This document shows, one piece after another, positions 1,434 to 57,849 of a DNA stretch of 64,000 nucleotides. Position 1 is the first letter of the stretch, and each line of letters opens with the position of its first letter. Where the stretch lies: the sequence record OR757434.1; one strand, 5' to 3'. The stretch comes from Escherichia phage vB-EcoP-XT18. Under the pieces are notes generated by a model. It was not told where the DNA came from, ran no database searches, and saw nothing but the letters and a program-made list of their open reading frames with translations. The translations under genes and the position numbers were made by a program.

Positions 1434-1434
1434 A

Positions 1435-2796: not shown

Positions 2797-2805
2797 GGAA
2801 TAAGA

Positions 2806-3339: not shown

Positions 3340-3546
3340 ATGACTGAAGAAGAGTTCCAAGAACTGAAAGGTTTGACTACCGAGGTTCAATTAAAAGCTA
3401 TGACATTTGGTCGAGCATGTCATCAATTTGATATATGCGTCGAAAGCAGTAAAGAAGCTTGTAAGAGCTATATGGATAAGAAGCACCTTGAATGGGGTAA
3501 AGCCTCTAACGATCTTTATAACTATATGAAGGGTTTAGTAAAATGA
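3340..3546 (+). CDS. hypothetical protein
   Basis: ORF in operon context. Confidence 0.4.
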   Translation: MTEEEFQELKGLTTEVQLKAMTFGRACHQFDICVESSKEACKSYMDKKHLEWGKASNDLYNYMKGLVK

Positions 3547-3740
3547 AAAAGTGGATTGTTCGTGTACATGATGATATGACTGGAGACTTGGTAGCTGTAG
3601 ATTTTATTAACACTCGAGAACACGCCCGTAGGGTCAAAAACCAATACAAGTCTACTTTTAGACTCAATAAGGTTACAATAGGAAAAGCTATTGTGAATAA
3701 CGAAGGTGCTCTTTTTGCCAACAGCAAGGTTTATTATTAA
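3543..3740 (+). CDS. small basic protein, paralog family A member 1
   Basis: shares W..V...TR.EAR..KK...VYY pattern with 3740-3949, 3959-4159 and 6501-6710. Confidence 0.45.
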   Translation: MKKWIVRVHDDMTGDLVAVDFINTREHARRVKNQYKSTFRLNKVTIGKAIVNNEGALFANSKVYY

Positions 3741-3949
3741 TGAGACCAATCACTATGAGACAGTTTTGGTTAGCAAAGATTAAGTGGGCATCAGGTGGTA
3801 TGACTATGACTGCACTTCCTACTCGTCAACAGGCTCGAGATTTTAAAAAGACTATGCTTACTGGTGACGTGGTCAATAGTATCAGTATCCATAAGGCCAA
3901 GGAGTATTCTTCTGGTCGTGTTTATATCAGCGGAAAGGTACATTACTAA
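3740..3949 (+). CDS. small basic protein, paralog family A member 2
   Basis: paralog pattern, ends VHY. Confidence 0.45.
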   Translation: MRPITMRQFWLAKIKWASGGMTMTALPTRQQARDFKKTMLTGDVVNSISIHKAKEYSSGRVYISGKVHY

Positions 3950-3958
3950 TGAAAAAAG

Positions 3959-4159
3959 ATGTGGGCGATTCGTGTTGTTTGGGATCTTGATCAACACACG
4001 AGAAAAGATAGCATCAAATTGTTTGACACTCGCAAAGAGGCTCGTATTGCTAAGAAACAGTTGAAGACTCTGGGCACAATAGTAAAAAGCGCTGATATAC
4101 ATCGCTGGTACGAAGACCCTAACTCGGGTTCTTTTATGTCTAAAGTAATTTATTACTGA
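3959..4159 (+). CDS. small basic protein, paralog family A member 3
   Basis: paralog pattern, ends VIYY. Confidence 0.45.
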   Translation: MWAIRVVWDLDQHTRKDSIKLFDTRKEARIAKKQLKTLGTIVKSADIHRWYEDPNSGSFMSKVIYY

Positions 4160-4183
4160 TTGGTAGTAGATATGGTAACTCTC

Positions 4184-4192
4184 AAATGTATA
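4184..4192 (+). promoter_or_regulatory. AAATGTATA, variant of the recurring TAATGTATA putative phage-sigma promoter motif
   Basis: motif about 40 nt upstream of the 4232 start. Confidence 0.3.
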
Positions 4193-4231
4193 TAGAGTAC
4201 AATAAGAATTTGTATTTTACAGGAGAGAGTT

Positions 4232-4558
4232 ATGTTAGATTTGAGTAAAGTGGCCCCGCCCACTGAAGAGATTACAAAATCCAAGGTGATGCAACAGTTT
4301 TATCATCGTGATATGCTTGGTCGCTTTATCAAGAATCGTGATGTTGTTGCTTGGTCTATTGGTAATCAAGGATATCTGTTGAAGGTTCTTCAGGTTACAG
4401 GTTCAACTGCTAAGCGAGTTAAGGTGTATGACCCTGAAATGGGGCGTTCTAAGTCAGTAGACCCGCAGAACTGCATCGTAATTACCCAGCAGGTGATAGC
4501 AAATCTAGAAAGAAATGTAGCAAACTCTACTGAGTTAGAAGGAGAAGACCCTAAGTGA
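4232..4558 (+). CDS. hypothetical protein
   Basis: ORF with GGAG-type RBS. Confidence 0.45.
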   Translation: MLDLSKVAPPTEEITKSKVMQQFYHRDMLGRFIKNRDVVAWSIGNQGYLLKVLQVTGSTAKRVKVYDPEMGRSKSVDPQNCIVITQQVIANLERNVANSTELEGEDPK

Positions 4559-5049
4559 TTCCAAAGGAATTGGAAGGGAAGATTGATGTAACAGAGGATG
4601 GTAGAGTATTTACTATAAAAAGTGGAAGGTTTTTAACCCTCCACACTAATGGTGCCTATTACAGAGTTACTATTTACTTTCCTGAAGGATTAAAGAATTT
4701 CTATGTCCACAGGCTGGTTGCTAGTAAGTACATACCGAACCCTGATAATCTTCCATGTGTCAACCATAAGGATGGCAATAAACTTAACAATCATAAAGAT
4801 AATCTTGAATGGTGTACCCACCGAGAAAACTCTCAACATGCATCATCATTAGGTCTGATGGTACAGAGGTTTGGAGAAGACAATCCGCAGTCTAAACTTA
4901 CTCTAGAAGATGTAGAGTACTGTAGGAGAGTTTATATCCCTCGAGATAAAGAGTTTGGAGGCTCTGCCCTTGCAAGACGTTTTGGTGTCTCTCAGCAAGT
5001 GATATCAAAAGTTCTACTTAATCAAACTTGGAGGGAATATAATGCATAA
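4555..5049 (+). CDS. HNH homing endonuclease with C-terminal HTH
   Basis: VNHKDGNKLNNHKDNLEWCTHRENSQH; paralog of 41312-41824. Confidence 0.8.
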   Translation: MIPKELEGKIDVTEDGRVFTIKSGRFLTLHTNGAYYRVTIYFPEGLKNFYVHRLVASKYIPNPDNLPCVNHKDGNKLNNHKDNLEWCTHRENSQHASSLGLMVQRFGEDNPQSKLTLEDVEYCRRVYIPRDKEFGGSALARRFGVSQQVISKVLLNQTWREYNA

Positions 5050-18730: not shown

Positions 18731-19335
18731 GTAATGAGCCTAAACCTTTAGTAGTAATTCTTAATGGGCCTCCGGGTTGTGGTAAGGATACGATAGCTGA
18801 GGAGTGGTTACTAAAATCCCACATTGCGTCTTATTCTCGTTATATTAAATCATTTAAAGAGCCTATGTACAAAGTCGCCTCCGCAGCATTAGGTTTGAAC
18901 TTGGAGGATTTTCTGGAGTTTTATAAAGATCGAAACTGGAAAGAAAAACCTAGGCCTGAATGGGGAGGTAGGTCTGTCAGAGATTTAATGATTTCCACAA
19001 GTGAAGATTACTTAAAACCTATGTTTGGTAAGAACTACATGGGAACCCAAGCAGTAAATAGTATCAAGTCAGAAGGAAGGAATCACAATGATGTTATCCT
19101 GTTTACTGATGGTGGGTTTGAAGCAGAGGTGAGAGAGCTAGAAAAGTCTTTCAATGTAGTAGTAGTTCAAGTTCACAGGAATGGTTGTGATTTTTCTGGA
19201 GATTCTAGGAATTATATTGAAGGGGAGCAGTTAGAAACTTGTACATTATCCAACAATCGAACTATTTCGGAAGCTCGGTACTACTTGGATTGGATTATAG
19301 CTGAAAATAGAGATAAAGTTTATGGAAGAAGTTAA
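18721..19335 (+). CDS. P-loop kinase, probably deoxynucleoside monophosphate kinase
   Basis: Walker A NGPPGCGKDT; resembles T4 gp1 dNMP kinase by eye. Confidence 0.55.
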
Positions 19336-20140
19336 GCTCCCTGAAGTAGCTATAGTGGATGCTGACGTTCTTCGATATGAAGTGGGTGCTCTTACTCAGG
19401 AGCATCCCTTCCTTGACACAGGACGTGTTCCAGTTGATTACAATTTCATGATTGAACGACTTCAGTACAAGATAGATACTATAATTGCTCGATCAGGTTG
19501 CAGTAAGGTTGTGTTCTACTTCAGCGAAGGTGGTAACTTCCGTTTCGATGTTGCTAAGCAGCAAGACTACAAAGCAAACAGACCTCCCGGAGAAAGACCT
19601 TTCCACTGGCAAAACGTTGGTGATTACATTAAAGGTAAGTATGAATACATAGATGTATTTGGGAGAGAGGCTGATGATGCACTAGCTGAAAGGCAACGTA
19701 GGGATAAGAACACTATCATCTGTACTAGAGACAAGGATTTGTTGATAACTCCCGGATGGCACTACCGTTGGGCTTGTGGAGAAAGACAGAAAGAAGTTCC
19801 TCCTCACTATGTATCTGATTTAGTTTCATGGCAAAACTTCTTCTATCAGATGCTGATTGGAGATGGTACAGATAATATCCCCGGATGTGGAGAACGTAAA
19901 GAAGTTATGTGGGGCGGTAAGCTTCAGCTTCGACGTCAAGGTGTTGGGAAGAAGGCAGCAGCTAATCTATTGGCTGGTGTTACAGATAAGTGGACCATGT
20001 ATCATATAGTACGAATGGAATATTATAAGAGATTTGACATTGAAGATGAAGAGAAGATGCTTGAAAATGCTCGTCTGCTCTTTGTTGGTCAGACTCCGGA
20101 AGACCTGTTCGACTGGACATGGTTAAACAAATCTTGGTAA
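19322..20140 (+). CDS. 5'-3' exonuclease / flap endonuclease
   Basis: VAIVDADVLRYEVG, YKANR, READD and TRDKDL match the FEN/T7 gp6 family. Confidence 0.7.
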   Translation: MEEVKLPEVAIVDADVLRYEVGALTQEHPFLDTGRVPVDYNFMIERLQYKIDTIIARSGCSKVVFYFSEGGNFRFDVAKQQDYKANRPPGERPFHWQNVGDYIKGKYEYIDVFGREADDALAERQRRDKNTIICTRDKDLLITPGWHYRWACGERQKEVPPHYVSDLVSWQNFFYQMLIGDGTDNIPGCGERKEVMWGGKLQLRRQGVGKKAAANLLAGVTDKWTMYHIVRMEYYKRFDIEDEEKMLENARLLFVGQTPEDLFDWTWLNKSW

Positions 20141-20153
20141 TAAGGATATTATA

Positions 20154-20345
20154 ATGGGTAAATTTGATTATCGTTCATATGATGAAAACTCCTCCAATCG
20201 TGAATCTCGTAAAGAGCAGCGTATTAAATACAGTCATGAATTAGGAAATCGCTATATTAAAGAAAAGCGTGAAAAAGTATCACATCGAGTAGATAAACGT
20301 GTATGGGAAGAAGATGATATGAGTATAGGTTATGGCGAAGGCTGA
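20154..20345 (+). CDS. hypothetical protein
   Basis: ORF. Confidence 0.35.
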   Translation: MGKFDYRSYDENSSNRESRKEQRIKYSHELGNRYIKEKREKVSHRVDKRVWEEDDMSIGYGEG

Positions 20346-20733
20346 GAAGACACGCTGTAGTGGAATGTGGACTGAAGCTCGTTACAACTCTTTCATCAAG
20401 TCAGGGATTCGTTCTCTGACTAGAAAGTGGAAGCCCATGTTCGATGCACTAGCAGACGCCAAGACAGAGCAGAAGGTTAATCCAAAGACAGGAAGACTGG
20501 CAATGCACTTTAAGTGTGCCATGTGTGGTTCTGACCACCCTGTAAAGGATATGGCTATTGACCACATAGAGCCTATAGTTCCTCTTGACCATGAAGCAAC
20601 TTGGGATGAAATCATCTCTCGTGCTCTGTGTGAGAAAGAAGGTTTTCAGGTTCTGTGTAAAGACCCTTGTCATAAGATTAAAACAAAAGAAGAGAATGAT
20701 GCAAGAAAACAATTCAAAAAAGGAAATGAGTGA
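20332..20733 (+). CDS. HNH-type endonuclease
   Basis: CAMCG...IDHIEPI...CKDPCHK. Confidence 0.55.
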   Translation: MAKAEKTRCSGMWTEARYNSFIKSGIRSLTRKWKPMFDALADAKTEQKVNPKTGRLAMHFKCAMCGSDHPVKDMAIDHIEPIVPLDHEATWDEIISRALCEKEGFQVLCKDPCHKIKTKEENDARKQFKKGNE

Positions 20734-20953
20734 TGATCAAAAATCTACGCAACAAGTGCTTCGCTTTCGCTATCGCAATTGGAGAGGCGAGGTTGCTGAC
20801 CGGTCCGTTATTCCACTCCGAACCTCCGTTGCTAGCTCCCGTTTTCATAACGGTGGCAAACCTTGTTGGATTATGACAGCGATAGATATAGAGAAAGATG
20901 AGATTCGAGAGTTCAAACTCTCTGACATTATTCAGTATTACGATTTAATCTAG
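20729..20953 (+). CDS. hypothetical protein
   Basis: ATG with AAAGGAA RBS inside track ORF 20585-20953. Confidence 0.35.
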   Translation, partial: SDDQKSTQQVLRFRYRNWRGEVADRSVIPLRTSVASSRFHNGGKPCWIMTAIDIEKDEIREFKLSDIIQYYDLI

Positions 20954-21390
20954 GAACTGACATGATCACACAAGCAGATAAAAATAAACTCTTCGACTTA
21001 ATCCACGATCTATTAGAAGCTCAGAGCTTTATTGATAATGTCGAGACTTGGGAGATGGAAGCAGCTGGAAAAGCTTTTGATGAAAGCGAAGAGAAACTTA
21101 CTAATTTTATAAACACAATCTAGGAGGGTGTATGAATGAAGGAGTTGTTATTCTTGGCAGTAAATCAGATTGGTTCTACGGAGGCATCTCAGGATGCTTT
21201 GAAGATGAACATCCAGACTTCTGAAGAGAATTGGGATGTATGACGAATTTGATGGTTTTTGAAAAGATAAAACAGAGCAAAATTGATATGATGAAAAAGT
21301 TCAAAGCGGCTTATGATAAAGCTGTTAAAGAAGGAACTATCACTTACAAGAAAATCTAGAAATAAATAAAGCCCCTTCCAAGGAGGATTA

Positions 21391-31839: not shown

Positions 31840-32808
31840 TCACCAACTCCCTATCCTAATTCTCAGAGCACCACTTCCATCATAGAAGTCTATCCTGTTT
31901 CCATTCATCCATAATTGTGCCCCACCTGTGCCACCCATAACGAAATCACCTCCAACAGTAAACCTCCAGTTAGTACCTGACATTGTACCAGCAGTTATTT
32001 TATCAGCAGACAAACTTTGAATCTGAGCATTGGTGATTGATACGTTGGTAATCTGCCCCCACTCAATAGTAGCAGTTGCAATTTGAGCAGAGGTGATAAC
32101 TACGTTAGTGATATCAGCAAACTCCATAACAGCTCTACCGTTCTCAACTCTGAATGGGGTACTTCCTGACGTGCCATCAGATACCACAAACTTATCAGCT
32201 GTTACTTGGAACTGGCTTATAGTGCCATTGTTTGTTAGCTTTACCCCTGCTGTCTTGCCGTTTACTGTGGAATTAACACCCCAAGTAGCCTCATACTCGG
32301 TGAGCTTCATATACTGAGATGCACTTCCTGTGCCATTAGTGAGATCAGATTGAATAAGAGCTATCTCTTGTCCTTGGTCGTTAACAATCCCTTCGACAGT
32401 TTGGATAGATGCTGTATTTCCTTCTATAGACGTTTTGATACCGGACACAGTTGAATCCAGCTTGACAGGAGGACTAACAGAATTATCCCAAATGTCATCA
32501 GTGGATAGATTACCCATTTGTGTTATGATATCTGCAATGGCAGTCTCAATCTCTGTAGTAACACGGTTCTCTAGTTCATCGAATTGTAAATTCATAGCAT
32601 GAAGAGCTTTAATACGAACATCAATCTCCTCATGGATTTCATCTATAGCTTGGAACATTTGATTAGTTGCAGTACTGATATTCTGGAGTTCATCATATAT
32701 TGCAACGTTGTTAGTTTCTACACTCTCAGAGGTGTTTAGAAAACCCACACTATAAGGTTGTGTTGTGTTGTTTCTTCCGGTATTCTTACGAAAGCCACCA
32801 GCACCCAT
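31840..32808 (-). CDS. tail-fibre-like structural protein
   Basis: ORF in the late operon; C-terminal Thr/Gly-rich repeats. Confidence 0.4.
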   Translation of the reverse strand: MGAGGFRKNTGRNNTTQPYSVGFLNTSESVETNNVAIYDELQNISTATNQMFQAIDEIHEEIDVRIKALHAMNLQFDELENRVTTEIETAIADIITQMGNLSTDDIWDNSVSPPVKLDSTVSGIKTSIEGNTASIQTVEGIVNDQGQEIALIQSDLTNGTGSASQYMKLTEYEATWGVNSTVNGKTAGVKLTNNGTISQFQVTADKFVVSDGTSGSTPFRVENGRAVMEFADITNVVITSAQIATATIEWGQITNVSITNAQIQSLSADKITAGTMSGTNWRFTVGGDFVMGGTGGAQLWMNGNRIDFYDGSGALRIRIGSW

Positions 32809-32820
32809 ATAACCTCCTTC

Positions 32821-32852
32821 TTATAAACAAGAAAAGGGAGCACGAAGCTCCC
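32821..32852 (-). terminator. rho-independent terminator (minus strand)
   Basis: GGGAGC-UUCGU-GCUCCC then UUUUCUUGUUU on the minus strand. Confidence 0.55.
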
Positions 32853-32858
32853 TTAGTA

Positions 32859-35816
32859 TTATCTTCGCCCGCCAACAGCAAATTCAATAGTTAGGCCATT
32901 GATAGCTGCATTACTGTTAACATCATTATCTATAACATTATAGAATAGATACGGATGGTTCAGTCGGACACCTACATGTCTGTCCACACCAATCGTATAA
33001 GACTTTTCACTGTGAATATGTCTATCTTCCTGATCAGAATACTGACTACCGCCAGCTTGGAATATATAGGTACCTGACCCTGTTACTTGTGGACGGAATC
33101 GGTTTATGTGCTTCTGATTCCATTCGTTAGTTACATTGTCAAAATCTATACCAGTTCTTTCCAGTTTCATCTCTAAAGGCTTCCTGACAACAATATCATT
33201 CAACCTATCGAATGAGTAGTCATAAGGACCTACATCCACTTGGTAAAAGCCTTTCATCCAAGAACCTACTACAGTGACTCTCTGACGGAAGTTAGTAGAA
33301 TCCTTTCTCCACACAAGTTCACTGATTGAAGGGTCATCCCAAGTATACTCTTGGAAATCCACCCAAGTAGGACCTTTCTCTAGAGTTGGAGGATCAACTA
33401 AACCGATACAATGAGAGAATGGGATTGTACGGAAAGACCATGTATCAAACTCATAGTTCCATACAGCGGCTTTAGTACAAGCAAAACTCCCAGCAGGCTC
33501 TCCGGGTCCAACATAGAGAATCCACACTTCCTTCTTATCTTGATGTAAGTGAACCTTAGTGGCTAAAGGGTTTACTAAACAGATTTCGTTGATAAGCATG
33601 TTCTTGACCCTGTTGGATGCAATAGATTTCTTAGTTGCACCATTGTGTAGAATAACATCATTCTGAGTAACAACAAAGTGACTGCTCTCAACTTCAACCA
33701 CACACTCAGGAGCTAAGATTCCAGAATCGTTGAAGAGCTTCTTGAACATTAGTGGTTGATATGTGTTGTTAGTTGGGGATCCGATGTAAGTCTCAAACTC
33801 TGTGTAGATAAATAAGTAATCCTTAAGAGGAAGAATCTCAACTAAACTACCGTTTGAGTCAGCTAAATCTATATACCCAGCATATCCATTTTCCAGAGCC
33901 TCAGTCTGACCTACAACGTTTGCCGCTAAGTCTGAAGTCACATATCTATCGTAAGCAAAATCATCCCATAAAGTAGGTGCCTTATTCTCATTAGCGTAAT
34001 TAGACCAGCGAAGGCGAAGAGGATAGTGAGTGGTAACCCCTGATGCATTAGACTCTCGCATATTAAGAGCAAATAGGCGATTATTAAATGCACGAATCCT
34101 TTCGCACTTCCAGTTATATTTTACAACAGATGGGTTTCCGTTAGCATCAACTATCGTCTGCTCCCCCCACCCCGGAAGATCTGTGAAGTACTCAGAGGCA
34201 AACTCTTTTACTTGAGGGGTTTCGTAGTGAGTGGTGAATACTGCGCAGTTAGAAATAATCGTATTGTACCAAGGATATTCCTCAAACGCTTCATAGTCTC
34301 TACGAGCTACCTGACTAGCAGTACAGGTTATCTTCACTTTGCCAGTCTTAATAGCAGTTAAGGTAAAGGAAGGCCCAGTAGTGGAAGTAGAGGATACATA
34401 TCCCGGCTGATCTACCACCCAATTATAAAGATAGTCTCCTTCAGGGAATGCCGTTGCAGTTATTACTAATTCATCTCCAACATCAATTTCAGTATCCACA
34501 ATGTCAAGAGTTAAAGTTTCAAGTTGAGCTGACCTTGACATAACTGCATTTAAAGAATAGGCTTCGACTCCATCAACCATAGAATAGTCATAAAAAGGGT
34601 TGCCCTCTGACATAGCCGAAGTGTCGATACCTGAATCCGTAGAACTCGGTTCTTCAGGAGGAGCTGATGCAGCAGCAAAAAGGGTTCTACTTGACAGCTC
34701 AACTCTAACACTACAGGTAGCTGTCCTCTCACCTTCTTCCGTAGTTGCTGTTATAACTGTGAACCCAGCTGTGAGTCCAGAGATAGTACCTTGAAGACCT
34801 GTTCCAGAAACAGTAGCAATATTTGGATTAGAGGAGGTCCAAGTTATTTTCTGATTTGCAGCATTTGATGGGATTAAACTAGCATACAAGACATATGACG
34901 CCCCACGGTTAATTTGTAAATCTGTTTGACTCAAAGATATACTGTCAATTTGATTAATAACACTAACAGAACATTCTGAGGTCTTAGACCCATTGCTTGC
35001 AGTTATTAGTGCATTACCTACTCCTTGAGCGGATAAAACTGCTGTAGTAGTATCACCGTTAGGAGCTACAGAAATAATGGCTGGGTTAGAAGAAGTCCAT
35101 GTTAGAGGGGTCTTACTGGATGTTGCTGTAAGTGTGGTTGTTCCGCCTTTACGGAGTTGGACAGAGTCCCGGTTAAGGAAGATACCAGAATCAGAATCAA
35201 CAACCCTTACGGAGATGCTGGCAGTCACAGAATCATCTTCATTAGAGACAGTGACAGTAAAGCTGCCCTCATTAGATAAGACACTCAATGTAGCTTTCTT
35301 ACTATCATCAGGATCAACTAGTATTGAACCATAAGAAGGATTACTAACCTCCCACACAAGAGATGGTGTAGTAACACCCTCCGGAAGAAGAGATACCTCA
35401 AGAGTCTTGCTTTCATTAAAATTCATAATGACAGACGTTTCTTTAGGGATGATCTCCGTTAGTACAGGATTTATCTTAACATAAGACACAGCTTTTTTGG
35501 TGACTGTAGCCACTCTTCGACTAACATCAATCATAGATTCGTTGTTCAGTCTAAAAATACTCTTATCTGTACCTACCAGCAAGAAGCTATTGTTAGCGCT
35601 AAAGTAGTCAAAAGGCATTGAAGCGAATGATAATGGTTTTATTTCTTTATCACTCTCAACGTAAGAAAGAGGGGCAGAGCCCCCCGTTTTAAACACACGC
35701 TGTTCTACAAACCGAGCATTGATTGCATTAGTGAATGCATTAGGAGCCAGATCTGTAGGAGATTGGTCGGCAATAACACCAACCGCACCCAAAGATTTTA
35801 TTGGGTAGAGAGCCAT
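32859..35816 (-). CDS. large structural protein with three Big_2-like Ig domains
   Basis: repeats of the form ITWTSSNP..ATV......G...ITA typical of bacterial Ig-like group 2 domains. Confidence 0.5.
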   Translation of the reverse strand: MALYPIKSLGAVGVIADQSPTDLAPNAFTNAINARFVEQRVFKTGGSAPLSYVESDKEIKPLSFASMPFDYFSANNSFLLVGTDKSIFRLNNESMIDVSRRVATVTKKAVSYVKINPVLTEIIPKETSVIMNFNESKTLEVSLLPEGVTTPSLVWEVSNPSYGSILVDPDDSKKATLSVLSNEGSFTVTVSNEDDSVTASISVRVVDSDSGIFLNRDSVQLRKGGTTTLTATSSKTPLTWTSSNPAIISVAPNGDTTTAVLSAQGVGNALITASNGSKTSECSVSVINQIDSISLSQTDLQINRGASYVLYASLIPSNAANQKITWTSSNPNIATVSGTGLQGTISGLTAGFTVITATTEEGERTATCSVRVELSSRTLFAAASAPPEEPSSTDSGIDTSAMSEGNPFYDYSMVDGVEAYSLNAVMSRSAQLETLTLDIVDTEIDVGDELVITATAFPEGDYLYNWVVDQPGYVSSTSTTGPSFTLTAIKTGKVKITCTASQVARRDYEAFEEYPWYNTIISNCAVFTTHYETPQVKEFASEYFTDLPGWGEQTIVDANGNPSVVKYNWKCERIRAFNNRLFALNMRESNASGVTTHYPLRLRWSNYANENKAPTLWDDFAYDRYVTSDLAANVVGQTEALENGYAGYIDLADSNGSLVEILPLKDYLFIYTEFETYIGSPTNNTYQPLMFKKLFNDSGILAPECVVEVESSHFVVTQNDVILHNGATKKSIASNRVKNMLINEICLVNPLATKVHLHQDKKEVWILYVGPGEPAGSFACTKAAVWNYEFDTWSFRTIPFSHCIGLVDPPTLEKGPTWVDFQEYTWDDPSISELVWRKDSTNFRQRVTVVGSWMKGFYQVDVGPYDYSFDRLNDIVVRKPLEMKLERTGIDFDNVTNEWNQKHINRFRPQVTGSGTYIFQAGGSQYSDQEDRHIHSEKSYTIGVDRHVGVRLNHPYLFYNVIDNDVNSNAAINGLTIEFAVGGRR

Positions 35817-35825
35817 ACTTCCTCC

Positions 35826-36629
35826 TTAACTAATACGTCTCCAGATATATGCTGCACGGAAAGGTGGTAGCGTATTTATAGGTTGACGAGATACGTCATC
35901 ATAGCCAAATGTTGCATTGCCAGTGATAGAGTGGGTGTGGGTATCAGAACTTGTTACAGCAGAATATCCACTACCTGGACTGTACCAGTTAGGTGAGCTA
36001 TTATGACCACTTGCATCTCCACGTCCAAATGATGTAGTGTGTGAGTGTGTATAGTTAGAAAGAGAAAAACTTGAACCAGAGATTGTAGTCAATGGCAGGT
36101 TCTCTGTCTTAACTGTGTTGTAAACACGACCACCTGTAGCACCAGCAGTAAACTCCACACGCTGAGCATTAGGGACTGTCCCATCAGGGTTCACAACCCC
36201 AGCACCCATGATAACACCAGTAACTGCTGTCCAGATACCAAACCCTAAAGATGTAGAATCTCCAGGGTTAATATCTTCCTCAGTGATGTAATAAGACCCA
36301 ACCCTGTAAATCTTATTCTGCATCCAGTTGAGCATAAAAGATTCCATTTGAGCTTTGGTGGTAAAGTCGCTATTACCAGTACCTGCTGTACCGTTCTTAA
36401 TCATCAGACCACCAACATCCATATAGTCACCAGCAAAAGAGATCTTGTCAGAGATGGCGGCTAGTGTATCAGAATCTACTGTCATAGGCTCAGTTAAGTT
36501 GGGGAATGTGTTCTGTAATACTTGCTTAACTAGGCGCAGCTGGGCTGCACCTTCATAGATATAATCTCTATCACGAGGATAGAGAGGGTTTAAGTCGGTA
36601 ACTACTACCGCATTAGTTTCAATAGCCAA
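35826..36629 (-). CDS. tail-fibre-like structural protein
   Basis: ORF in the late operon; Gly/Ser/Thr-rich C-terminus. Confidence 0.4.
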   Translation of the reverse strand: MAIETNAVVVTDLNPLYPRDRDYIYEGAAQLRLVKQVLQNTFPNLTEPMTVDSDTLAAISDKISFAGDYMDVGGLMIKNGTAGTGNSDFTTKAQMESFMLNWMQNKIYRVGSYYITEEDINPGDSTSLGFGIWTAVTGVIMGAGVVNPDGTVPNAQRVEFTAGATGGRVYNTVKTENLPLTTISGSSFSLSNYTHSHTTSFGRGDASGHNSSPNWYSPGSGYSAVTSSDTHTHSITGNATFGYDDVSRQPINTLPPFRAAYIWRRIS

Positions 36630-36641
36630 GAGGCACCTCCA

Positions 36642-37133
36642 TTAATATTTACCTTCGGTATAAAGATCAGCTTCTGCAACCCTTCTGTTATGAAGACCCT
36701 GACTTCTCTGCTTCACTCCCTTGACCGTTATCTTATCCCAACGAAGAAATTCAGAATATACATCCCCTTTAACGTCTCCATTGATAACCTTCCTTAACTT
36801 AGATGTGCTCAAAGCCCCACTACCAACATTAAAGTTGAAAGAGGTGAGTGCATCAAACTCATGAACTAGCAAAGGAACCTTTATGTTCTTCTGAGTAGCA
36901 CGAACAGAGTCTTGTGTGTCTCTATCTAGCAGAGCTAGACAATCCTCTATAGAATACGTTAATCCTTGTCTAACCGGATAACCATTCATATCGCGCGTAG
37001 CCCCTACACATATCGTCCAGATACCTGCGGAATCTTTATAAGCCTTAGTTCTCATACCCTCATGCTTCATGATAAATTCAATTCCAGCTGGGCTTAAGTT
37101 TAATTGTACAGGTGGCAATGCGGCGTTATCCAT
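36642..37133 (-). CDS. lysozyme (T4 lysozyme-like, GH24)
   Basis: FIMKHEGMRTKAYKDSAGIWTICVG matches the GH24 catalytic region. Confidence 0.75.
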   Translation of the reverse strand: MDNAALPPVQLNLSPAGIEFIMKHEGMRTKAYKDSAGIWTICVGATRDMNGYPVRQGLTYSIEDCLALLDRDTQDSVRATQKNIKVPLLVHEFDALTSFNFNVGSGALSTSKLRKVINGDVKGDVYSEFLRWDKITVKGVKQRSQGLHNRRVAEADLYTEGKY

Positions 37134-37162
37134 TTCTAACCTCCTTTTGTAGTCCCTTTAGA

Positions 37163-37381
37163 TTAAGGTAATATCTTTCTCAGAGCGTTAGATTCAGCAT
37201 CAGGACAAATAACAACTAAGTTATTTTGAATTATTCTCTGCTTACATTGAGAACTAAGTTTCTCTACTGGAGCAGGGATATTTACTAATGGGTGAACTGC
37301 ACCTACAGGAACTGCGGTCGACACCACAACACCTGCACCTAAACACACCAAACCATATGCAGCTTGTTTCATCATTTTCAT
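37163..37381 (-). CDS. small membrane protein, possible holin
   Basis: single 23-aa hydrophobic segment; directly upstream of the lysozyme. Confidence 0.3.
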   Translation of the reverse strand: MKMMKQAAYGLVCLGAGVVVSTAVPVGAVHPLVNIPAPVEKLSSQCKQRIIQNNLVVICPDAESNALRKILP

Positions 37382-37496
37382 TTAAGTGTCTCCTATATAT
37401 TAACCTCTTGAGATATATTAGTTTCATTACCCATCAAGAAAAGGTACTGCTAAAAATTCTTGATGGGCTGTTCTTATCACATATAGAGTATCAAGA

Positions 37497-39569
37497 TCAT
37501 ATCAATCCATAGATGATGTTGTGAAGAACACACCCCCCAACTGCGCCACCTATGTTGAAATTAATTTCAGCCTTACTGGACCCTGGAGGAACTGAATCAA
37601 TAACAGCATAGAAACTGAACGAGTTGTTACTAGGTATGTAATATCCAATAGACTCAGAAACTGCATTACCTGCTGAATCTAGAAACCTAATAGATGCTAG
37701 TGTAGTGGTTGTATTCTTAGCCCAAAAACCAAACTGAAAGTATCTTCCGGGATGACACTCACTCACTGATTGGGTGAAGTTTGCCGAGCTAGTCGTATCT
37801 GGGACACCAAAAGAGAATGATGTGTTAAACATAGGAGACGAACTCGGAACATCATTGGGTTGAGAAACTGACACTACCCCTGATCCTGTTTGACTAAATG
37901 TCCAGTTAGATGTATTTAAGAATTGCCCGGAACCATTACTAAGACTATTAATGTAAGGGCTTACAATAGATCCAAGATCCCACCTACTTAAGACAAAACC
38001 AGCTCTAGGGTAACATCCGTTAGACACAACTCTCTTACTATCACCGCCGATGAGTTGGCGAGTAGGGAAACCAGTGGCTAGAGTATTGTTGCCATACAGA
38101 GGTAGAGAGCAGTTTGTCAGAGAAACAAAACCATCCCCATTACTTACTATAGGGACAGAACTAAAACCTACAGGGACCAAAATTGTCGAATCTTTTATGC
38201 TCAATCTCGAACTACCATTAACAGAAAAAGAAACAAAAGACTGATCCGGTTGATACTCAATGTTCCCATTAGAAAAAACAACTGTGGCGTTGTCTGTCAT
38301 TATAATGGTTGGGTCAAAATATCCAGACTTTTTCCCAGCAGGAAGTGAACACGTATCAAAGATGAATTGTCCATTCTCAAAAGTAAAAGGTCCTCCGTTA
38401 TCCACGCACCAGCAGTGATTGAACTTTATAACTTCTCCAGAGTTCGCTCTTGATTTAAAAACAACCGTGTCCGTAAAGCTTCTACTTATTGCACATTTGT
38501 CAAAAAGGATCCTATATGAATTATCAAGGAATTCAAGACCAGCTGTTGAGATAAAACCACAATTTTCTATCCGAACTTCCGACACCTCCCCACTATCAGT
38601 CCCTCCAATTACAACCTTTCTGGCACCTAGACCAACAAAGGACACTCCTGATATCTTAGCTGTTGAAGAAATCGAATCTCTAAGCCCATAATCTGTGTTT
38701 GAATTTATAATCTTCAAGAAATATTGACCTGTTGCTCCAGCCCCTTCCTGAAGCTTACAATTATTATAGCCTATCAAGGCTCCTTTAGAAACGTCAATAG
38801 CTATCTCAGATAATACGGATCCAGAAGTTGGAACTATACAATCGTAACCAGAGGAGTTCACTTTGTTGATATAAACAGCAATATCCCCGCTGCCAGTGTA
38901 GCCTGCATCAAACACAGAAGCTTCTCCAGAGAATAGCAACCTCTTCCATTTTACAGAAACTCCACTGAAAACCACCACCCCATCAGCTGTTTCTGAATTG
39001 TCTATTGCTACAAACACACCCCCTCCCATATTAGCCCCTTCGACATAAGATCTTACAAAGACTTTGTCACCTACAGAAGCTCCCTCTAAGGTCTGAAGTT
39101 GTTCAATAGAGGGGAGATCTCCAATAAGATTAAACCCTGTAGGCAGGCCTAGTTCTTGAGAGACCACATTAGATACCTGACCTAATGCCACTGCTTCGTC
39201 ACTCTCAACGGCGTTTGGTATACGTATAGGTTGAGAAAAAGTTACCTTATTTGTCATCGAAGTAATATCTGAGTTAGCCCCACTCTTAGCCGCAACCAGT
39301 GCGAGCCTTGCCGTGTCCGGAGAAGAGGCTCCTGTACCACCTTTCGAAATAGGAACAATATTTTCTACAGAAACATCACCTAATCCTAAATTAGATCTAG
39401 CAATAGTAGTATTAATTGCTCCTGTACCACCTTTCGAAATAGGAACAATATTTTCTACAGAAACATCACCTAATCCTAAATTAGATCTAGCAATAGTAGT
39501 ATTAATTGCTCCTGTACCACCTTTCGAAATAGGAACAGGCTCCTGTACCACCTTTCGAAATAGGAACAA
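37497..39569 (-). CDS. tail fibre, C-terminal portion (gene appears split by a frameshift in the repeat array)
   Basis: begins with identical 30-aa tail-fibre repeats (SKGGTGAINTTIARSNLGLG); overlaps the upstream ORF by 68 nt. Confidence 0.6.
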   Translation of the reverse strand: MFLFRKVVQEPVPISKGGTGAINTTIARSNLGLGDVSVENIVPISKGGTGAINTTIARSNLGLGDVSVENIVPISKGGTGASSPDTARLALVAAKSGANSDITSMTNKVTFSQPIRIPNAVESDEAVALGQVSNVVSQELGLPTGFNLIGDLPSIEQLQTLEGASVGDKVFVRSYVEGANMGGGVFVAIDNSETADGVVVFSGVSVKWKRLLFSGEASVFDAGYTGSGDIAVYINKVNSSGYDCIVPTSGSVLSEIAIDVSKGALIGYNNCKLQEGAGATGQYFLKIINSNTDYGLRDSISSTAKISGVSFVGLGARKVVIGGTDSGEVSEVRIENCGFISTAGLEFLDNSYRILFDKCAISRSFTDTVVFKSRANSGEVIKFNHCWCVDNGGPFTFENGQFIFDTCSLPAGKKSGYFDPTIIMTDNATVVFSNGNIEYQPDQSFVSFSVNGSSRLSIKDSTILVPVGFSSVPIVSNGDGFVSLTNCSLPLYGNNTLATGFPTRQLIGGDSKRVVSNGCYPRAGFVLSRWDLGSIVSPYINSLSNGSGQFLNTSNWTFSQTGSGVVSVSQPNDVPSSSPMFNTSFSFGVPDTTSSANFTQSVSECHPGRYFQFGFWAKNTTTTLASIRFLDSAGNAVSESIGYYIPSNNSFSFYAVIDSVPPGSSKAEINFNIGGAVGGCVLHNIIYGLI

Positions 39570-39701
39570 TATTTTCTACAGAAACATCACCTAATCCTAA
39601 ATTAGATCTAGCAATAGTAGTATTAATTGCTCCTGTACCACCTTTCGAAATAGGAACAATATTTTCTACAGAAACATCACCTAATCCTAAATTAGATCTA
39701 G
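39328..39701 (-). repeat. perfect 90-bp tandem repeat array (about 4 full units plus a 31-nt partial unit) inside the tail-fibre gene
   Basis: units at 39328, 39418, 39539 and 39629; truncated 30-nt unit plus one G at 39508-39538. Confidence 0.85.
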
Positions 39702-40563
39702 ACCCCTCTGCCGTGGAAGAACCCGTACCGCCTTGGAGCAGAGAGAGAGGTGTGGTTAGACCTGAGAGGGAGGTAATATCTGAGTTAGAGCCACTCTTAG
39801 CTGCACCGGTAATCTGCTCAACAGTATAGTCTCCGGCCTGCGGTGATACAACACCTGTCCGTGAGTTAAAACTGGAAACCACCTGTAAAGAAACTTCTCC
39901 TGTTTGAGCAACACCTCCATTAAGAGATACTGACCGAACAGAGGGGATTAGATTAGCAATGTCAACCATTGAGGTTCTATACAGCCCACCAGAGTCCTTA
40001 TCTACGAAAAAACCATAATCATCCGACACAGGAATACCAACAGGAGTTTCCCCAATGTCTGAAATTGTACCATCTGTTCCGTCACGACCCGGCTTCCCTT
40101 CTGGAATACCAAAAGAGAATACACCAGTTGTATTGTCATAGGAACCCGTTGCCAAACTACCTGGGGGTAGTAGCGTCGTCTGTACCGTCATATTAGAAAT
40201 AATATCAAGCTGTTCTAGGACTTGCTGCGTTGCTTCTCTTGAAAGATCTGTAGCTGCATTTGTATTGTCAATAGCCTGTCCCGTAGACTGAATAAGACCT
40301 AGAAGAGTCTGATTCTGTGCTTCAAAGTCTTCTTTAAGTTGCTTAATGTCAGACTCTAGCAGGAACCCTTGAGCGTATAGACGTTCTACCTCAGCAAGAA
40401 TCTCATCTACTGAAGAATATTTAGTCTGGGATAACAGCGCCCAATATTTAGCATCAGCTGCATACTCAGCCGCTGATTTATAAGCACCAATTGATCCTTC
40501 TGTAGCACCAAATTGGCCTACATTATTCACCGCTGTAGGTGCTGAATTGTTGTAACTGATCAT
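39502..40563 (-). CDS. tail fibre, N-terminal portion (ends 20 codons after the partial repeat)
   Basis: same 30-aa repeats at the C-terminus; reading frame leaves the repeat frame at 39538. Confidence 0.6.
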   Translation of the reverse strand: MISYNNSAPTAVNNVGQFGATEGSIGAYKSAAEYAADAKYWALLSQTKYSSVDEILAEVERLYAQGFLLESDIKQLKEDFEAQNQTLLGLIQSTGQAIDNTNAATDLSREATQQVLEQLDIISNMTVQTTLLPPGSLATGSYDNTTGVFSFGIPEGKPGRDGTDGTISDIGETPVGIPVSDDYGFFVDKDSGGLYRTSMVDIANLIPSVRSVSLNGGVAQTGEVSLQVVSSFNSRTGVVSPQAGDYTVEQITGAAKSGSNSDITSLSGLTTPLSLLQGGTGSSTAEGSRSNLGLGDVSVENIVPISKGGTGAINTTIARSNLGLGDVSVENIVPISKGGTGACSYFERWYRSN

Positions 40564-40572
40564 ATTATCTCC

Positions 40573-41349
40573 TTATACACGAGAAGTACGAATACCATAA
40601 ATATCAGGCAAGCTGCTCTGAAGCCGAGTCATGTTATTCGGAATTGCGATAGGTGAACCTGAGTACTCTTGTTTCTTATTCTGCTCTACCATTTCATCAA
40701 GGATAGCTTTTCCTAATGCTGACCATTTCTGAACTCCGTTGTCATCTTGAACAAACAAGCAAGCATGACGTAGAGTAAAGTACAGAAGAAGTTCTGGTGC
40801 GATAGTAAGAATAGCACTAGTGTCTGTGTCTTCATGGAATTCCGGTGGGTCTGCATAATAACTAAGAATTACTGAGTTTTCTGCTGGAATCAAAGGACTT
40901 CCATCATCAGGGTAATACGGAGTGTCTGCTTCGATGCTAGGATAGAAAATGAAACGACTACCGAAACGAGCAAAGTTAACAGGTTGATTGTTCCAATGAG
41001 ATGGGTTAATTGTTCCATGCTGTCTACGATAGCTAATCTCTTCAGGAGATGTTACTTGGAAGATTGTACCATCTTTGGCTCTCATCATCCATTGAGCTTC
41101 TAAGTAATCAGGAGGAATGTAAGCTACTCCATCTTTAATATCTAAATACACTTCTTTTTCCAGAGGAGGGATACGTAAATTACGATAAATCTCTTTCTCT
41201 GCAAAGTTAATAAAGTTTGGAATTTGATTAACAAATTCGTCATCGTCCCTATCTGCCCAGAGGGCCACGGCCTTCTTTAGCCACCCATAGGTATTGATGG
41301 GGTATTGAACGTCAGGCAACATAGGATACCTCCTTCCAGTTTGTGCCAT
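40573..41349 (-). CDS. structural protein, possible head-tail adaptor
   Basis: ORF between the capsid region and the tail fibre. Confidence 0.35.
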   Translation of the reverse strand: MAQTGRRYPMLPDVQYPINTYGWLKKAVALWADRDDDEFVNQIPNFINFAEKEIYRNLRIPPLEKEVYLDIKDGVAYIPPDYLEAQWMMRAKDGTIFQVTSPEEISYRRQHGTINPSHWNNQPVNFARFGSRFIFYPSIEADTPYYPDDGSPLIPAENSVILSYYADPPEFHEDTDTSAILTIAPELLLYFTLRHACLFVQDDNGVQKWSALGKAILDEMVEQNKKQEYSGSPIAIPNNMTRLQSSLPDIYGIRTSRV

Positions 41350-41824
41350 TGATTATCAGGCTTATTGTACTTGAAGAGACTCCAAACTTCCTAGCTAAAG
41401 CTCTAGCTCCGAACTGTCTGTCCCTCGGTTTATAGTTCTCTAAACAGAAAAGAACTTGTTCTTTAGTAAGTTTGGAATTAGGGTTATCCTCAAGATTTCT
41501 TGGTGTTGAGAGTTTTGTTTCATAAGCATGTACACAGTTTTCTTGTTGAGTACACCACTCTAGATTCTCAATCCTGTTATCATCTTTTATTCCATTCTTA
41601 TGGTTGACATAATCCTTCCCTTCTACTTTAGGAAGAAAGAGTTCAGCTATGACCCTGTGCTCTAGGTACGATTTCTTCTTGAAGGTTAGTACACGATATC
41701 CCTTATTATTAATACATCCAGCACGTTGCCCTTTCTGTTTATTGAATATGTTACTCATAGACCAGAAAAGATGCCCTGTATTTGGGTTATATGTAAAAGC
41801 TCCTCTGAAATCTGGCATTGCCAT
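41312..41824 (-). CDS. HNH homing endonuclease with C-terminal HTH, free-standing inside the late operon
   Basis: VNHKNGIKDDNRIENLEWCTQQEN; own promoter motif upstream. Confidence 0.75.
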   Translation of the reverse strand: MAMPDFRGAFTYNPNTGHLFWSMSNIFNKQKGQRAGCINNKGYRVLTFKKKSYLEHRVIAELFLPKVEGKDYVNHKNGIKDDNRIENLEWCTQQENCVHAYETKLSTPRNLEDNPNSKLTKEQVLFCLENYKPRDRQFGARALARKFGVSSSTISLIINGTNWKEVSYVA

Positions 41825-41857
41825 AGGTTGTCCTCCTTGTTATATGTAGACAAAGAA

Positions 41858-41866
41858 TATACATTA
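41858..41866 (-). promoter_or_regulatory. TAATGTATA, putative phage-sigma-dependent promoter
   Basis: minus strand reads GTGTAATGTATATTC about 35 nt upstream of the HNH start. Confidence 0.45.
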
Positions 41867-41889
41867 CACACTAGCTTGTATAGGTCTTA

Positions 41890-41920
41890 AAACGAAAAAA
41901 CCCCGCCCGAAGGCAGGGTC
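41890..41920 (-). terminator. rho-independent terminator (minus strand)
   Basis: CCCUGCC-UUCG-GGCGGGG then UUUUUUCGUUUU on the minus strand. Confidence 0.65.
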
Positions 41921-41925
41921 TAATT

Positions 41926-42474
41926 TTAAGCAGCAGGTGTTACACCTGTGAATTCACAAGTGGCTGTTACAAGAGGTTTAGTCTCGTGTGTAGCTGTAAC
42001 AGAGACTGCACCCGTAGCAGTATCAGCAAGAGTCAAAAGACCAGCTGCACTAACAGTGCCCGCTTCCGGAGGAGTTACCTCAAAAGTATAGTCACTTCCG
42101 GTAGAGTTTGTTGCTGTAAACATAGTAGAGAATGCGGTTGTTGATCCACCCACCTTCCCTGAAATCGGACCTCGGCTAACAAGGGTAGGTTCAGGGTCAG
42201 CAATAGCTGAGATCGTAGATGTACCGGATTTACCACCTTTAGTAGCTTTCACTGTAATCGGGGTTTCTTGCGACGCACTCGGTGCAGTATACAGTCCAGA
42301 AACAGAAATAGCCCCACCACCCTCAACGGACCAAACAAATCCAGTTGTTGATGTGGAGCTATCACTCATTTGTGCTGTAGCTGTAAACTGCTGAGTAGCC
42401 CCCGTCGGAAGGCTTGCAACCGACGAAGGACTAACAGTTATGGTATCTACTGTTACGCCGCCACTGCCTTTCCC
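41926..42474 (-). CDS. Ig-like (Big_2) C-terminal extension of the capsid protein, reached by -1 frameshift
   Basis: -1 frame is open from the slippery site to the stop at 41926; the Big_2-like sequence VTVDTITVSPSSVASLPTGATQQFTATA begins upstream of the first Met. Confidence 0.6.
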   Translation of the reverse strand, partial: GKGSGGVTVDTITVSPSSVASLPTGATQQFTATAQMSDSSTSTTGFVWSVEGGGAISVSGLYTAPSASQETPITVKATKGGKSGTSTISAIADPEPTLVSRGPISGKVGGSTTAFSTMFTATNSTGSDYTFEVTPPEAGTVSAAGLLTLADTATGAVSVTATHETKPLVTATCEFTGVTPAA

Positions 42475-51009: not shown

Positions 51010-51450
51010 CAACCTTTCCCCGTGCCTACTCCCCGTAATTATTCCCCCGTGTATACTACCCAATACATTACCTACCCGTTTATTTAGTTCCCCTTTACTG
51101 AATGGATGAAAGGCTAGCACTGTATAGGCCAACTGATTAGTCTGCTAATAATGCCATTAATGATGGTCACCACTCCCCATAGTTTGAGTGTAAATAGTTT
51201 CAATAGTGATTGTTATGAGTGCAATAATGATGTATGTATTAATTAAGTGGATGATTGTGTTTCTTTTAATAATTTCTTTTAATTACTTTCTTTTTCAGCG
51301 TGCATGAGCGTAGCGAATGGTCTTTGATGTTTGAGTTATACAATTATTTAAGTGGTATATTATTACCGCACTATCTGGCAATGTTCCCCCGTGGTCTGTC
51401 CTGCGGTTGTATGTTCCCCGTCCTATAGAGATAGTAGAAATATTTTACCC
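51010..51450. repeat. dispersed YCCCCGT short repeats in an ORF-poor AT-rich region
   Basis: at least seven copies (51014, 51028, 51041, 51070, 51393, 51415, 51443). Confidence 0.45.
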
Positions 51451-56909: not shown

Positions 56910-57130
56910 TATTCAGTAGCAATTTTGGCAAGTGTCCTATTTGTGAGAAACATCGCAGCACGGGAAATCATCGAAAATGTAGTAAGATATTACAGCGTCA
57001 ACGTGATAACAATCATTGGGATACTGTACACACTAATCAGCGTAAAGAAGAAGTTAGAAAAATGGCTGTTAAAGCATCATTTGCTCAATCCACCCGTATT
57101 GAACACATTCAAAGGTATCAAGCATTATGA
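56906..57130 (+). CDS. small Cys/His-rich early protein
   Basis: CPICEKH...H..C; overlapping frame 56925-57137 is less likely. Confidence 0.35.
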   Translation: MIFSSNFGKCPICEKHRSTGNHRKCSKILQRQRDNNHWDTVHTNQRKEEVRKMAVKASFAQSTRIEHIQRYQAL

Positions 57131-57336
57131 TCACTAACATTTCAGAATTTAAGAAAGCACCTTCCCGCTTGTTAGGCCGTCGTGTAGTATATCTTTATAG
57201 CAACAAAGGTAAATGTACAACCGGAAGAATTACAACGGTGAGTAGTGCCAATAAGAAACTACTAAAATTATGTGTAGCTATGGATGACGGTACAATCCTG
57301 CTACGCAGTTGGAAGTCATTTAGTTTACTCGATTAA
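57127..57336 (+). CDS. hypothetical early protein
   Basis: ORF. Confidence 0.4.
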   Translation: MITNISEFKKAPSRLLGRRVVYLYSNKGKCTTGRITTVSSANKKLLKLCVAMDDGTILLRSWKSFSLLD

Positions 57337-57405
57337 GTTATTTGTTCAAGCCTATCGACTTGATGGGCTTGCCCGATATAACTTATCACTGAAAGGAATA
57401 AGATT

Positions 57406-57849
57406 GTGGCTAAATCTAAAATCAGCATGAAGGGCGGGCGTTGTTTTTCTATCTCTGAACTGGAGAAAGAGAAGCCGAAGGCAACCAATCACGTCAGTAA
57501 GCGCAGTTTAAAACGTCGTGCTGCAAAGGCTGAAGCTGAATCTCATATCCCTTCTAGTGTGGCAAAACGTGTAGGCCATCGCGTCCATCGTGCTGATGCG
57601 TTATTGTTAGCCGATCACAAACGTTCTTTATTACAGAGCGGGGGAGCTAAAACAGAAGAGGAGAAGAAGTTAGAAATCTTCTGTAATGGTCGCACCCGTG
57701 GTAAACAGAAATTTAAAGGTAGCACGAAAGACCCGCAGGCTTTTCCTAAGACAAGTCAGTGTGCACCTGATGTATTCTACGCAGATAGCAAACACAAATG
57801 GGGAGTTGAAAAATACATTGACCCCATCAAAGAGGCAAGGGTTAAGTAG
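57406..57849 (+). CDS. basic early protein
   Basis: Lys/Arg-rich ORF with RBS. Confidence 0.45.
   Translation: MAKSKISMKGGRCFSISELEKEKPKATNHVSKRSLKRRAAKAEAESHIPSSVAKRVGHRVHRADALLLADHKRSLLQSGGAKTEEEKKLEIFCNGRTRGKQKFKGSTKDPQAFPKTSQCAPDVFYADSKHKWGVEKYIDPIKEARVK

Follow-up and report, generated by a model that had tools for sequence, protein, structure and literature searches.

The window, which is the whole 64-kb stretch of DNA analysed here, is by its sequence a Kuravirus, that is, an SU10-like podovirus. Its closest relatives are the Escherichia phages vB-EcoP-XT32 (OR757435) and vB-EcoP-XT73 (OR757436), which have genomes almost identical to the window and E. coli O78 as the host of isolation; a literature search found no publication on either phage. 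The long tail fibre/tailspike gene (37497-40563, minus strand) is interrupted in the window and intact in XT32 and XT73. Immediately upstream of it is an SU10-type adaptor gene (40573-41349, minus strand; PF24175 SU10_adaptor, E = 3.6e-29) encoding the docking partner of the fibre, and this adaptor-then-fibre gene order is common to the window, XT32 and XT73. Apart from the long fibre, the window encodes one receptor-binding protein, a short tail fibre equivalent to SU10 gp16 (35826-36629, minus strand; PF21939 Gp10_C and PHROG 6465), and no further tailspike-sized ORF was detected in the structural module. A look-up of the neighbouring lysin protein matched XT32 and XT73 only.

The interrupted gene is read as two ORFs on the minus strand, at the positions where the preliminary description had placed the halves of one frameshifted gene. 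ORF A (39502-40563, 353 aa; PHROG 10305 tail fiber, E = 6e-82) encodes the virion anchor, a coiled coil and two 30-aa repeats, after which 11 residues are read out of frame (CSYFERWYRSN) up to a TAA stop. ORF B (37497-39569, 690 aa, TTG start; PHROG 4217, E = 1e-210) contains two 30-aa repeats and the tailspike module. The overlap of the two ORFs is 68 nt, and the frame of ORF B is shifted by +1 against that of ORF A. A Pfam search with both fragments and the intact proteins returned no significant domain, and the earlier call of a tail-fibre gene is upheld by the PHROG matches and by PDB homologies of both modules. The N-terminal 229 aa (39877-40563, minus strand) are homologous to SU10 gp12 (PDB 7Z47_D residues 1-226, E = 9.6e-96), and the C-terminal 563 aa (37500-39188, minus strand) are homologous to TSP4 of CBA120 (PDB 5W6H_A residues 139-697, E = 1.1e-245). 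The C-terminal module is ~65% identical to CBA120 orf213 and to the tailspikes of O78-host phages (EC1-UPM, ASO78B).

Judging from these homologies, the gene product is the single long tail fibre/tailspike of the phage, with a gp12-like anchor, a repeat linker and a TSP4-like O78 tailspike. TSP4 of CBA120 cleaves the O78 O-antigen (PMC8825819), and this specificity together with the O78 host of XT32 and XT73 suggests that the tailspike described here may also cleave or bind it. Docking of SU10 gp12 onto the adaptor is through its first 90 residues, the portion modelled in the cryo-EM map, and nozzle formation in SU10 was proposed to be triggered by long-fibre binding (PMC9509320). O-antigen dependence was observed in all tested Gordonclarkvirinae. 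The gene is thus very probably essential, given that it encodes the sole tailspike with a TSP4-like module, that the sibling phages were isolated on O78, that the phage group is O-antigen-dependent, and that the long fibre is the proposed nozzle trigger in SU10.

The linker/shaft between the anchor and the tailspike is encoded by a perfect 90-bp tandem array (39328-39701, minus strand), with the protein repeat SRSNLGLGDVSVENIVPISKGGTGA-INTTIA. With coordinates read on the plus strand, the array has full 90-nt units 1 and 2 (39328-39417 and 39418-39507), an extra 31 nt that break the frame of the minus-strand gene (39508-39538), a full 90-nt unit 3 (39539-39628), and a terminal partial unit of 73 nt (39629-39701). 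No base differs between the array copies (100% identity; TRF scores of 420, 482 and 753 at periods 90, 121 and 211, respectively), which is far beyond chance. About four identical 90-bp units had been reported for this region, interrupted by a 31-nt partial unit; the identity and the interruption are both borne out by the sequence, and the count is corrected to three full units, the 73-nt unit and the 31-nt piece, giving two protein-level repeats in ORF A and two in ORF B. The extra 31 nt comprise the first 30 nt of the unit (39508-39537) and G39538, and this G is the base normally preceding the array at its left flank (GAG, with the array then starting at GCTCC). On both sides of the 31-nt piece are 120-nt perfect direct repeats. 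No other long tandem repeat is present in the 64-kb window, and the 30-nt exact tandem duplicate at the insertion is likewise the only one of its kind there. The recent expansion of the array proposed earlier agrees with the single copy in a related Kuravirus contig and the two diverged copies in SU10 gp12.

A comparison with the sibling phages showed that the intact gene has 3216 nt, 1071 aa and 6 repeats in XT32, and 3036 nt, 1011 aa and 4 repeats in XT73. The array measures 343 nt with 4 repeats, 523 nt with 6 repeats and 374 nt with the partial unit, which is present in neither sibling gene. Single-ORF alleles are found in XT32, XT73 and MAUZ01, and the broken allele in this window only. 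The gene in the window is identical to that of XT32 at 935/935 nt upstream of the array and at 2000/2000 nt at the 3' end, and differs from that of XT73 at 4 nt. When the 31 nt were deleted in silico, one open ORF of 3036 nt was obtained, the same length as the XT73 gene. The unbroken fibre, previously put at about 1020 aa, would have 1011 aa with the 31 nt removed, and comes to 1021 aa if G39538 alone is removed. A protein homologue search revealed no truncated close homologue of ORF A, the relatives having at most 84% identity and the best-scoring one (P0001) 56%.

Across window positions 32149-42169 there were no mismatches to XT32, and this ~10 kb differed from XT32 only in the number of array copies and in the extra 31 nt. 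The mosaic patches that separate the window from XT32 are located at 0-3 kb, 19-21 kb and ~51.2 kb. No homopolymer-type or frame-breaking indels relative to XT32 were detected elsewhere in the window, so that the lone defect sits exactly where assemblers fail. Outside the break the window assembly is clean, gap-free and, unlike XT32, without any N; the XT32 record is a scaffold with a 495-N gap and one stray N, so that an incomplete, scaffolded assembly underlies at least one record of a close relative.

The junction is located at 39537-39538 (no strand assigned) and has 1 nt of microhomology. The 18-mer across it is GGAACAGGCTCCTGTACC (window 39531-39548), and the normal contexts are GGAACAATATTTTC and GAAGAGGCTCCTG. 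The only k-mers absent from XT32 were those spanning the junction (k-2 novel k-mers for every k tested), and every base on both sides matched real XT32 sequence. In a de Bruijn graph of the intact XT32 locus built with k=31, the loop-closing unitig stops at position 39537, and the left-flank unitig has 39538-39568 as its final 31-mer; one node of the graph thus appears to have both of its alternative predecessors written out consecutively, a k=31 correspondence that was noticed post hoc. The same junction was not found in the other public assemblies searched: IMG/VR had no match to the junction sequence, IMG/VR and the GTDB genomes had none to the unit-boundary pattern, the search of JGI metagenomes had one match (a single-copy relative), and the exact-protein look-up of ORF A had none.

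Based on these sequence comparisons, the break is probably an assembly or finishing artefact and not a property of the phage, because the two nearest relatives are intact and the break resembles pieces joined without overlap trimming. The real gene is most likely a single ORF of ~1011-1071 aa. An assembly collapse had been among the earlier suggestions; an assembly problem is favoured here as well, and it has the look of a mis-join in which a 30-nt overlap was left untrimmed, rather than of a collapse. The perfect array (343-523 nt) would exceed the typical short read, and such reads would therefore be unable to place it unambiguously. Two sequence pieces, each with an end inside the array, may have been joined end to end with their shared 30-nt overlap left untrimmed: piece A would end with TTAATT and the 30-mer, and piece B would start with G and the identical 30-mer. 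Such a join would leave 31 surplus bases and a +1 frame shift, and was presumably made in software or by hand rather than in the phage. An exact short duplication, valid sequence on each side and breakpoints at branch points of the repeat graph were all found, as in a mis-join. General low assembly quality was rejected as the cause because the defect is specific to the repeat, with no homopolymer-type indels relative to XT32. Against the artefact, a pure k=31 graph assembler would not yield 2 + 2 loop copies, and the pipeline would have to be hybrid, with larger k or read threading combined with a k-mer-based join, gap closure, circularisation or manual merge. In addition, one in vivo template switch with 1-nt microhomology could yield the identical sequence.

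A genuine frameshift allele is possible, though we consider it unlikely. An illegitimate template switch or a partial duplication within the array would have inserted the 31 nt and thereby parted the virion anchor (353 aa) and the O78 tailspike (690 aa), with a defective or attenuated genome as the result; this genome could be that of a subpopulation variant, of a lab-passage mutant or of a phage from a host that allows infection without the tailspike, or it could be non-viable and come from a metagenome. The break is present in the sequence as given, the window assembly is otherwise clean, the microhomology is compatible with template switching, and perfect tandem arrays are recombination-prone, the copy number being 1, 4 and 6 among relatives. 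However, a majority-broken allele of the sole tailspike should not propagate in an O-antigen-dependent phage group, both siblings are intact with identical flanks, and no second occurrence was found in the assemblies searched. The breakpoints also fall exactly at the branch point of array and flank with a 30-nt overlap, and a polymerase would have no reason to favour them.

It is very improbable that a real in-frame 30-nt partial duplication (an extra VPISKGGTGA, in a 1021-aa fibre) was combined with a one-base consensus error at G39538. Removing this base alone does give a continuous ORF with an exact 30-nt tandem duplication, but two independent events are required, the window has no other single-base indel errors relative to XT32, and the extra G, as the left-flank base of the array, is explained by a mis-join without any error. 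A 10-aa partial unit would also perturb a shaft with 30-aa periodicity.

Still more doubtful is that the 31-nt insertion is real and that a lytic podovirus here carries its sole O-antigen tailspike as an 'off' allele that can revert rapidly. A 121-nt deletion (period-121 repeat, 100% identical, 2 copies) restores an in-frame gene with 3 repeats, and a real broken allele would thus revert easily. If this were the case, 121-nt slippage deletions would restore the 3-repeat fibre at high frequency, and the population would be a mix of fibre-less and fibre-bearing genomes, or of fibres differing in length.

A regulated or contingency switch, in which the 'off' tailspike is bypassed by ribosomal +1 frameshifting or reversed at high frequency by slippage between the 120-nt direct repeats, is hardly credible: in its favour are the 121-nt deletion and the rare AGG codons in the 0-frame stretch, but ordinary copy-number slippage is frame-neutral (the unit of 90 = 3 x 30 nt means that whole-unit gain or loss never alters the frame, and XT32 with 6 copies and XT73 with 4 copies are both in frame), the 68-nt overlap is free of homopolymer runs and of canonical slippery motifs for +1 or -1 shifts, XT32, XT73 and MAUZ01 do not share the two-ORF arrangement, ORF B lacks both a promoter and a good ribosome-binding site, and a lytic phage has no obvious gain from disabling its sole adsorption device. 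The slippage-prone expression switch of the preliminary description finds no support, in view of the frame-keeping unit, the intact close relatives and the composition of the overlap. Other routes to expression also failed: for ribosomal frameshifting, no P-site codon in the overlap is able to re-pair in the +1 frame; for transcriptional slippage, the homopolymer is missing; for independent expression of ORF B, no promoter-like site was found within or close to the array, TTG is the sole start and lacks a Shine-Dalgarno sequence, and the product would be without any virion anchor. A two-protein fibre like that of SU10 (gp12 and gp13) was rejected as well, since the DNA around the split is identical to that of the siblings with one ORF, and the N-terminus of ORF B shows no anchor of the gp13 or TSP4 type.

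The main value of these results is as a quality flag: without it, a pseudogene or a pair of 'tail fibre' genes might be annotated in a phage with siblings that have one intact O78 tailspike. Long reads are needed before the repeat numbers given for this lineage (4, 6 and '4 + 31 nt') can be trusted. If the break were true, the phage would have a defective or rapidly reverting adsorption gene, which is relevant to any therapeutic use. The gene itself encodes a modular receptor-binding protein, in which a conserved linker motif (GGTG...ARSNLGL), amplified to identical 30-aa units, connects a Kuravirus gp12 anchor with an O78 tailspike of the Ackermannviridae/Gamaleyavirus type. Such a modular construction has some value for the engineering of phages that target avian pathogenic E. 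coli O78.

Among known systems, the locus resembles untrimmed-overlap misassemblies in having a 30-nt exact duplication (k-1 for k=31) at a join inside a perfect repeat array, which is a resemblance and not proof; it differs in the one extra base between the copies, which would be accounted for by a piece B starting with the 31-mer from the flank. Phase-variable contingency loci likewise have a repeat array within a surface-recognition gene, with repeat number differing among alleles. Unlike those with frameshifting simple-sequence repeats, the unit here is a multiple of three, and it is a unique partial unit, and not the copy number, that alters the frame. XT32 and XT73 share the fibre gene and the perfect 90-bp units with the window, whereas their genes are single intact ORFs with 6 and 4 protein repeats, respectively. 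SU10 gp12 (PDB 7Z47; PMC9509320) has a homologous N-terminus and its gene directly follows the SU10-type adaptor gene, as in the window; the GGTG...ARSNLGL motif is also present in residues 479-545 of gp12, in two diverged copies, whereas in the lineage of the window it is amplified to 4-6 identical copies. The SU10 fibre consists of two proteins (gp12 with 786 aa and the distal gp13), whereas that of the window lineage is a single protein ending in a tailspike. The homology to CBA120 TSP4 (orf213, PDB 5W6H) is C-terminal, and its O78 specificity matches the host serotype of the sibling phages, with the N-terminal baseplate-anchor and assembly domains of TSP4 replaced here by the Kuravirus gp12-type anchor and the repeat linker.

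The fibre gene lies on the minus strand and is split into ORF A (39502-40563, 353 aa) and ORF B (37497-39569, 690 aa, TTG start), which overlap by 68 nt; the ORF B frame is +1 with respect to that of ORF A. Read on the plus strand, the array comprises two full 90-nt units (39328-39417 and 39418-39507), the first 30 nt of a unit (39508-39537), a single G (39538), another full unit (39539-39628), and a 73-nt partial unit (39629-39701). All copies are identical (TRF scores of 420-753), and nowhere else in the 64 kb of the window is there a long tandem repeat or an exact short tandem duplication. ORF A leaves the frame after ...KGGTGA, continues as CSYFERWYRSN and stops, and a TAG at 39576-39578 closes the ORF B frame. 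Direct reading of the unit coordinates, the identical copies and both ORFs showed that the preliminary description of the array and the split was correct. A 93-aa antisense ORF (39313-39594, plus strand) traverses the array without independent support; it arises because the repeat also happens to be open in a second frame.

Two very close siblings, Escherichia phages vB-EcoP-XT32 and vB-EcoP-XT73 (XT32 and XT73 below; source, chicken-farm sewage; isolation host, E. coli O78), encode the fibre as one ORF. This is 3216 nt (1071 aa) with 6 protein repeats in XT32 and 3036 nt (1011 aa) with 4 in XT73, and the window has 3067 nt (3036 + 31) with its repeats split 2 + 2; none of these three repeat counts should be taken as verified. 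The corresponding region of MAUZ01000001.1, a Kuravirus metagenome contig of about 78 kb, has one unit copy. The single unit of this 77.9-kb contig (363-435) lacks the INTTIA joining segment, and the contig ends within the fibre gene about 360 nt beyond it. The gene shares 100% identity with XT32 over the 935 nt preceding the array and over its final 2000 nt, and the two-ORF state was found in none of these relatives. The differing unit number among relatives (1, 4, 6) bears out the proposed recent expansion, and the array is a recent, lineage-specific amplification. Deleting 31 nt yields an open 3036-nt gene with 4 nt different from that of XT73, and a 121-nt deletion yields an in-frame gene with 3 repeats.

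The window is from a Kuravirus (Gordonclarkvirinae), an SU10/phiEco32-like podovirus with a prolate head. The fibre gene directly follows an SU10-type adaptor gene (PF24175), and genes for a holin, a lysin, and a short tail fibre are located downstream. With the intact XT73 protein as the reference for module assignment, residues 1-229 matched the SU10 long tail fibre proximal protein gp12 (PDB 7Z47_D, E 9.6e-96), and residues 449-1011 matched CBA120 tailspike protein 4 (TSP4; PDB 5W6H, E 1.1e-245), which cleaves the O78 O-antigen (PMC8825819). TSP4-like modules at about 62-68% identity are found in other phages, several from O78 hosts, and the structural module of the window contains no second tailspike. 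The repeat between the two modules, SRSNLGLGDVSVENIVPISKGGTGA-INTTIA, is a GGTG...ARSNLGL fibre motif that also recurs in other solved tail fibres, with two diverged copies in SU10 gp12 (residues 479-545). The gp12-like start, TSP4-like end, and intervening repeat identify the gene as a predicted chimeric long tail fibre/tailspike with an O78 tailspike, in which the array would be the linker or shaft.

The break is probably an assembly or finishing artefact in the perfect tandem array. On the plus strand, the junction reads ...TTAATT[GCTCCTGTACCACCTTTCGAAATAGGAACA] followed directly by G[GCTCCTGTACCACCTTTCGAAATAGGAACA]ATATT.... G39538 is the same base as found just before the array at the left flank (GAAGAG/GCTCC), and on the coding strand it forms a GCC codon otherwise present only in the last repeat (GGTGA/SSPD). 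Both sides of the junction are valid XT32 sequence throughout, and at each k tested only the k-2 junction-spanning k-mers were new relative to XT32, corresponding to 1 nt of microhomology. In a k=31 de Bruijn graph made from the intact XT32 locus (four unitigs), the 77-nt loop-closing unitig stops exactly at window position 39537, and the final 31-mer of the left-flank unitig is the one starting at 39538. The two alternative 31-mers entering the repeat thus stand consecutively at the junction, with a shared overlap of 30 nt (k-1), an agreement with k=31 that was seen post hoc. The array likely exceeds the typical short read length, and two pieces joined untrimmed at an unresolved repeat branch would give the observed junction. 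Nothing would lead a polymerase to favour these two breakpoints. Because a pure k=31 assembler would not give 2 + 2 loop copies, the artefact reading presupposes a hybrid pipeline or a step of gap closure, circularisation or manual work.

Across the window, differences from XT32 fall into a small number of mosaic patches only (0-3 kb, 19-21 kb, and about 51.2 kb), with zero mismatches across 32149-42169. No homopolymer-type or other frame-breaking indels were found relative to XT32, and therefore the single defect falls exactly where assemblies fail. The XT32 record is a scaffold that contains a 495-N gap and one stray N. The gap (OR757435 positions 56953-57447) is covered by window 4058-5041, the stray N is at 76476, and the window has no ambiguous bases. 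The patches span 28-3000, 19000-21300, and 51180-51325, the remainder being identical; 28-4058 has 93.5% identity with clustered compensating indels. This patchy divergence points to mosaic recombination among co-circulating Kuraviruses rather than to gradual drift. A 170-aa HNH_3 homing-endonuclease ORF (41312-41824, minus strand) overlaps the adaptor gene 5' end in the window and XT32; XT73 has a 147-aa ORF there and MAUZ01000001.1 a different 170-aa ORF, and the adaptor N-terminus differs accordingly (MAQTGRRYPMLPDVQYPINTYGW in the window, MAMPEVKNPINTYGW in the contig). A mobile endonuclease adjoining the fibre locus seems to be polymorphic for presence or absence.

A genuine defective allele is the less likely explanation. 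In SU10, initial binding is the task of the long fibres, whose movement has been proposed to prime the formation of the nozzle (PMC9509320); therefore, a frameshift that cuts the only tailspike off from its anchor should make infection of the O78 host impossible, and a stock purified from plaques would not sustain a majority broken form. ORF B lacks a promoter, a convincing ribosome-binding site, and a virion anchor. The junction sequence was absent from IMG/VR and the unit-boundary pattern from IMG/VR and GTDB genomes, the single-copy relative was the only match in JGI metagenomes, the exact ORF A product had no recorded match, and no close homologue with a truncation came up in a large protein search; the neighbouring lysin is recorded for XT32 and XT73 only. 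A real 30-nt duplication with a one-base error is very improbable. Deleting G39538 alone opens a 1021-aa ORF with an additional VPISKGGTGA. The expression switch once proposed, programmed or contingency, is the least credible of all because copy-number slippage of a 90-nt unit alters fibre length but never frame, and the 68-nt overlap lacks a +1 or -1 slippery-like site and a slippage-prone homopolymer; a real insertion would, however, revert easily through the 120-nt direct repeats on either side of it, and this possibility is the only interesting residual reading.

With an artefact as the preferred explanation, the break is mainly a quality flag for the genome record, and the fibre gene is a clear case of modular receptor-binding protein architecture. 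The short tail fibre (35826-36629, minus strand, 267 aa) has HxH motifs (YTHSHTT and THTHSIT) resembling the histidine pairs proposed as iron-binding in SU10 gp16 and T4 gp12. Unlike SU10, with its gp12 and gp13, this lineage lacks a separate distal long-tail-fibre gene (the gp13 equivalent), and its proximal fibre protein is fused directly to the TSP4-like tailspike. The graft point is the conserved SLSGLTTPLS..GGTG..ARSNLGL motif common to the window fibre and SU10 gp12 residues 479-545.
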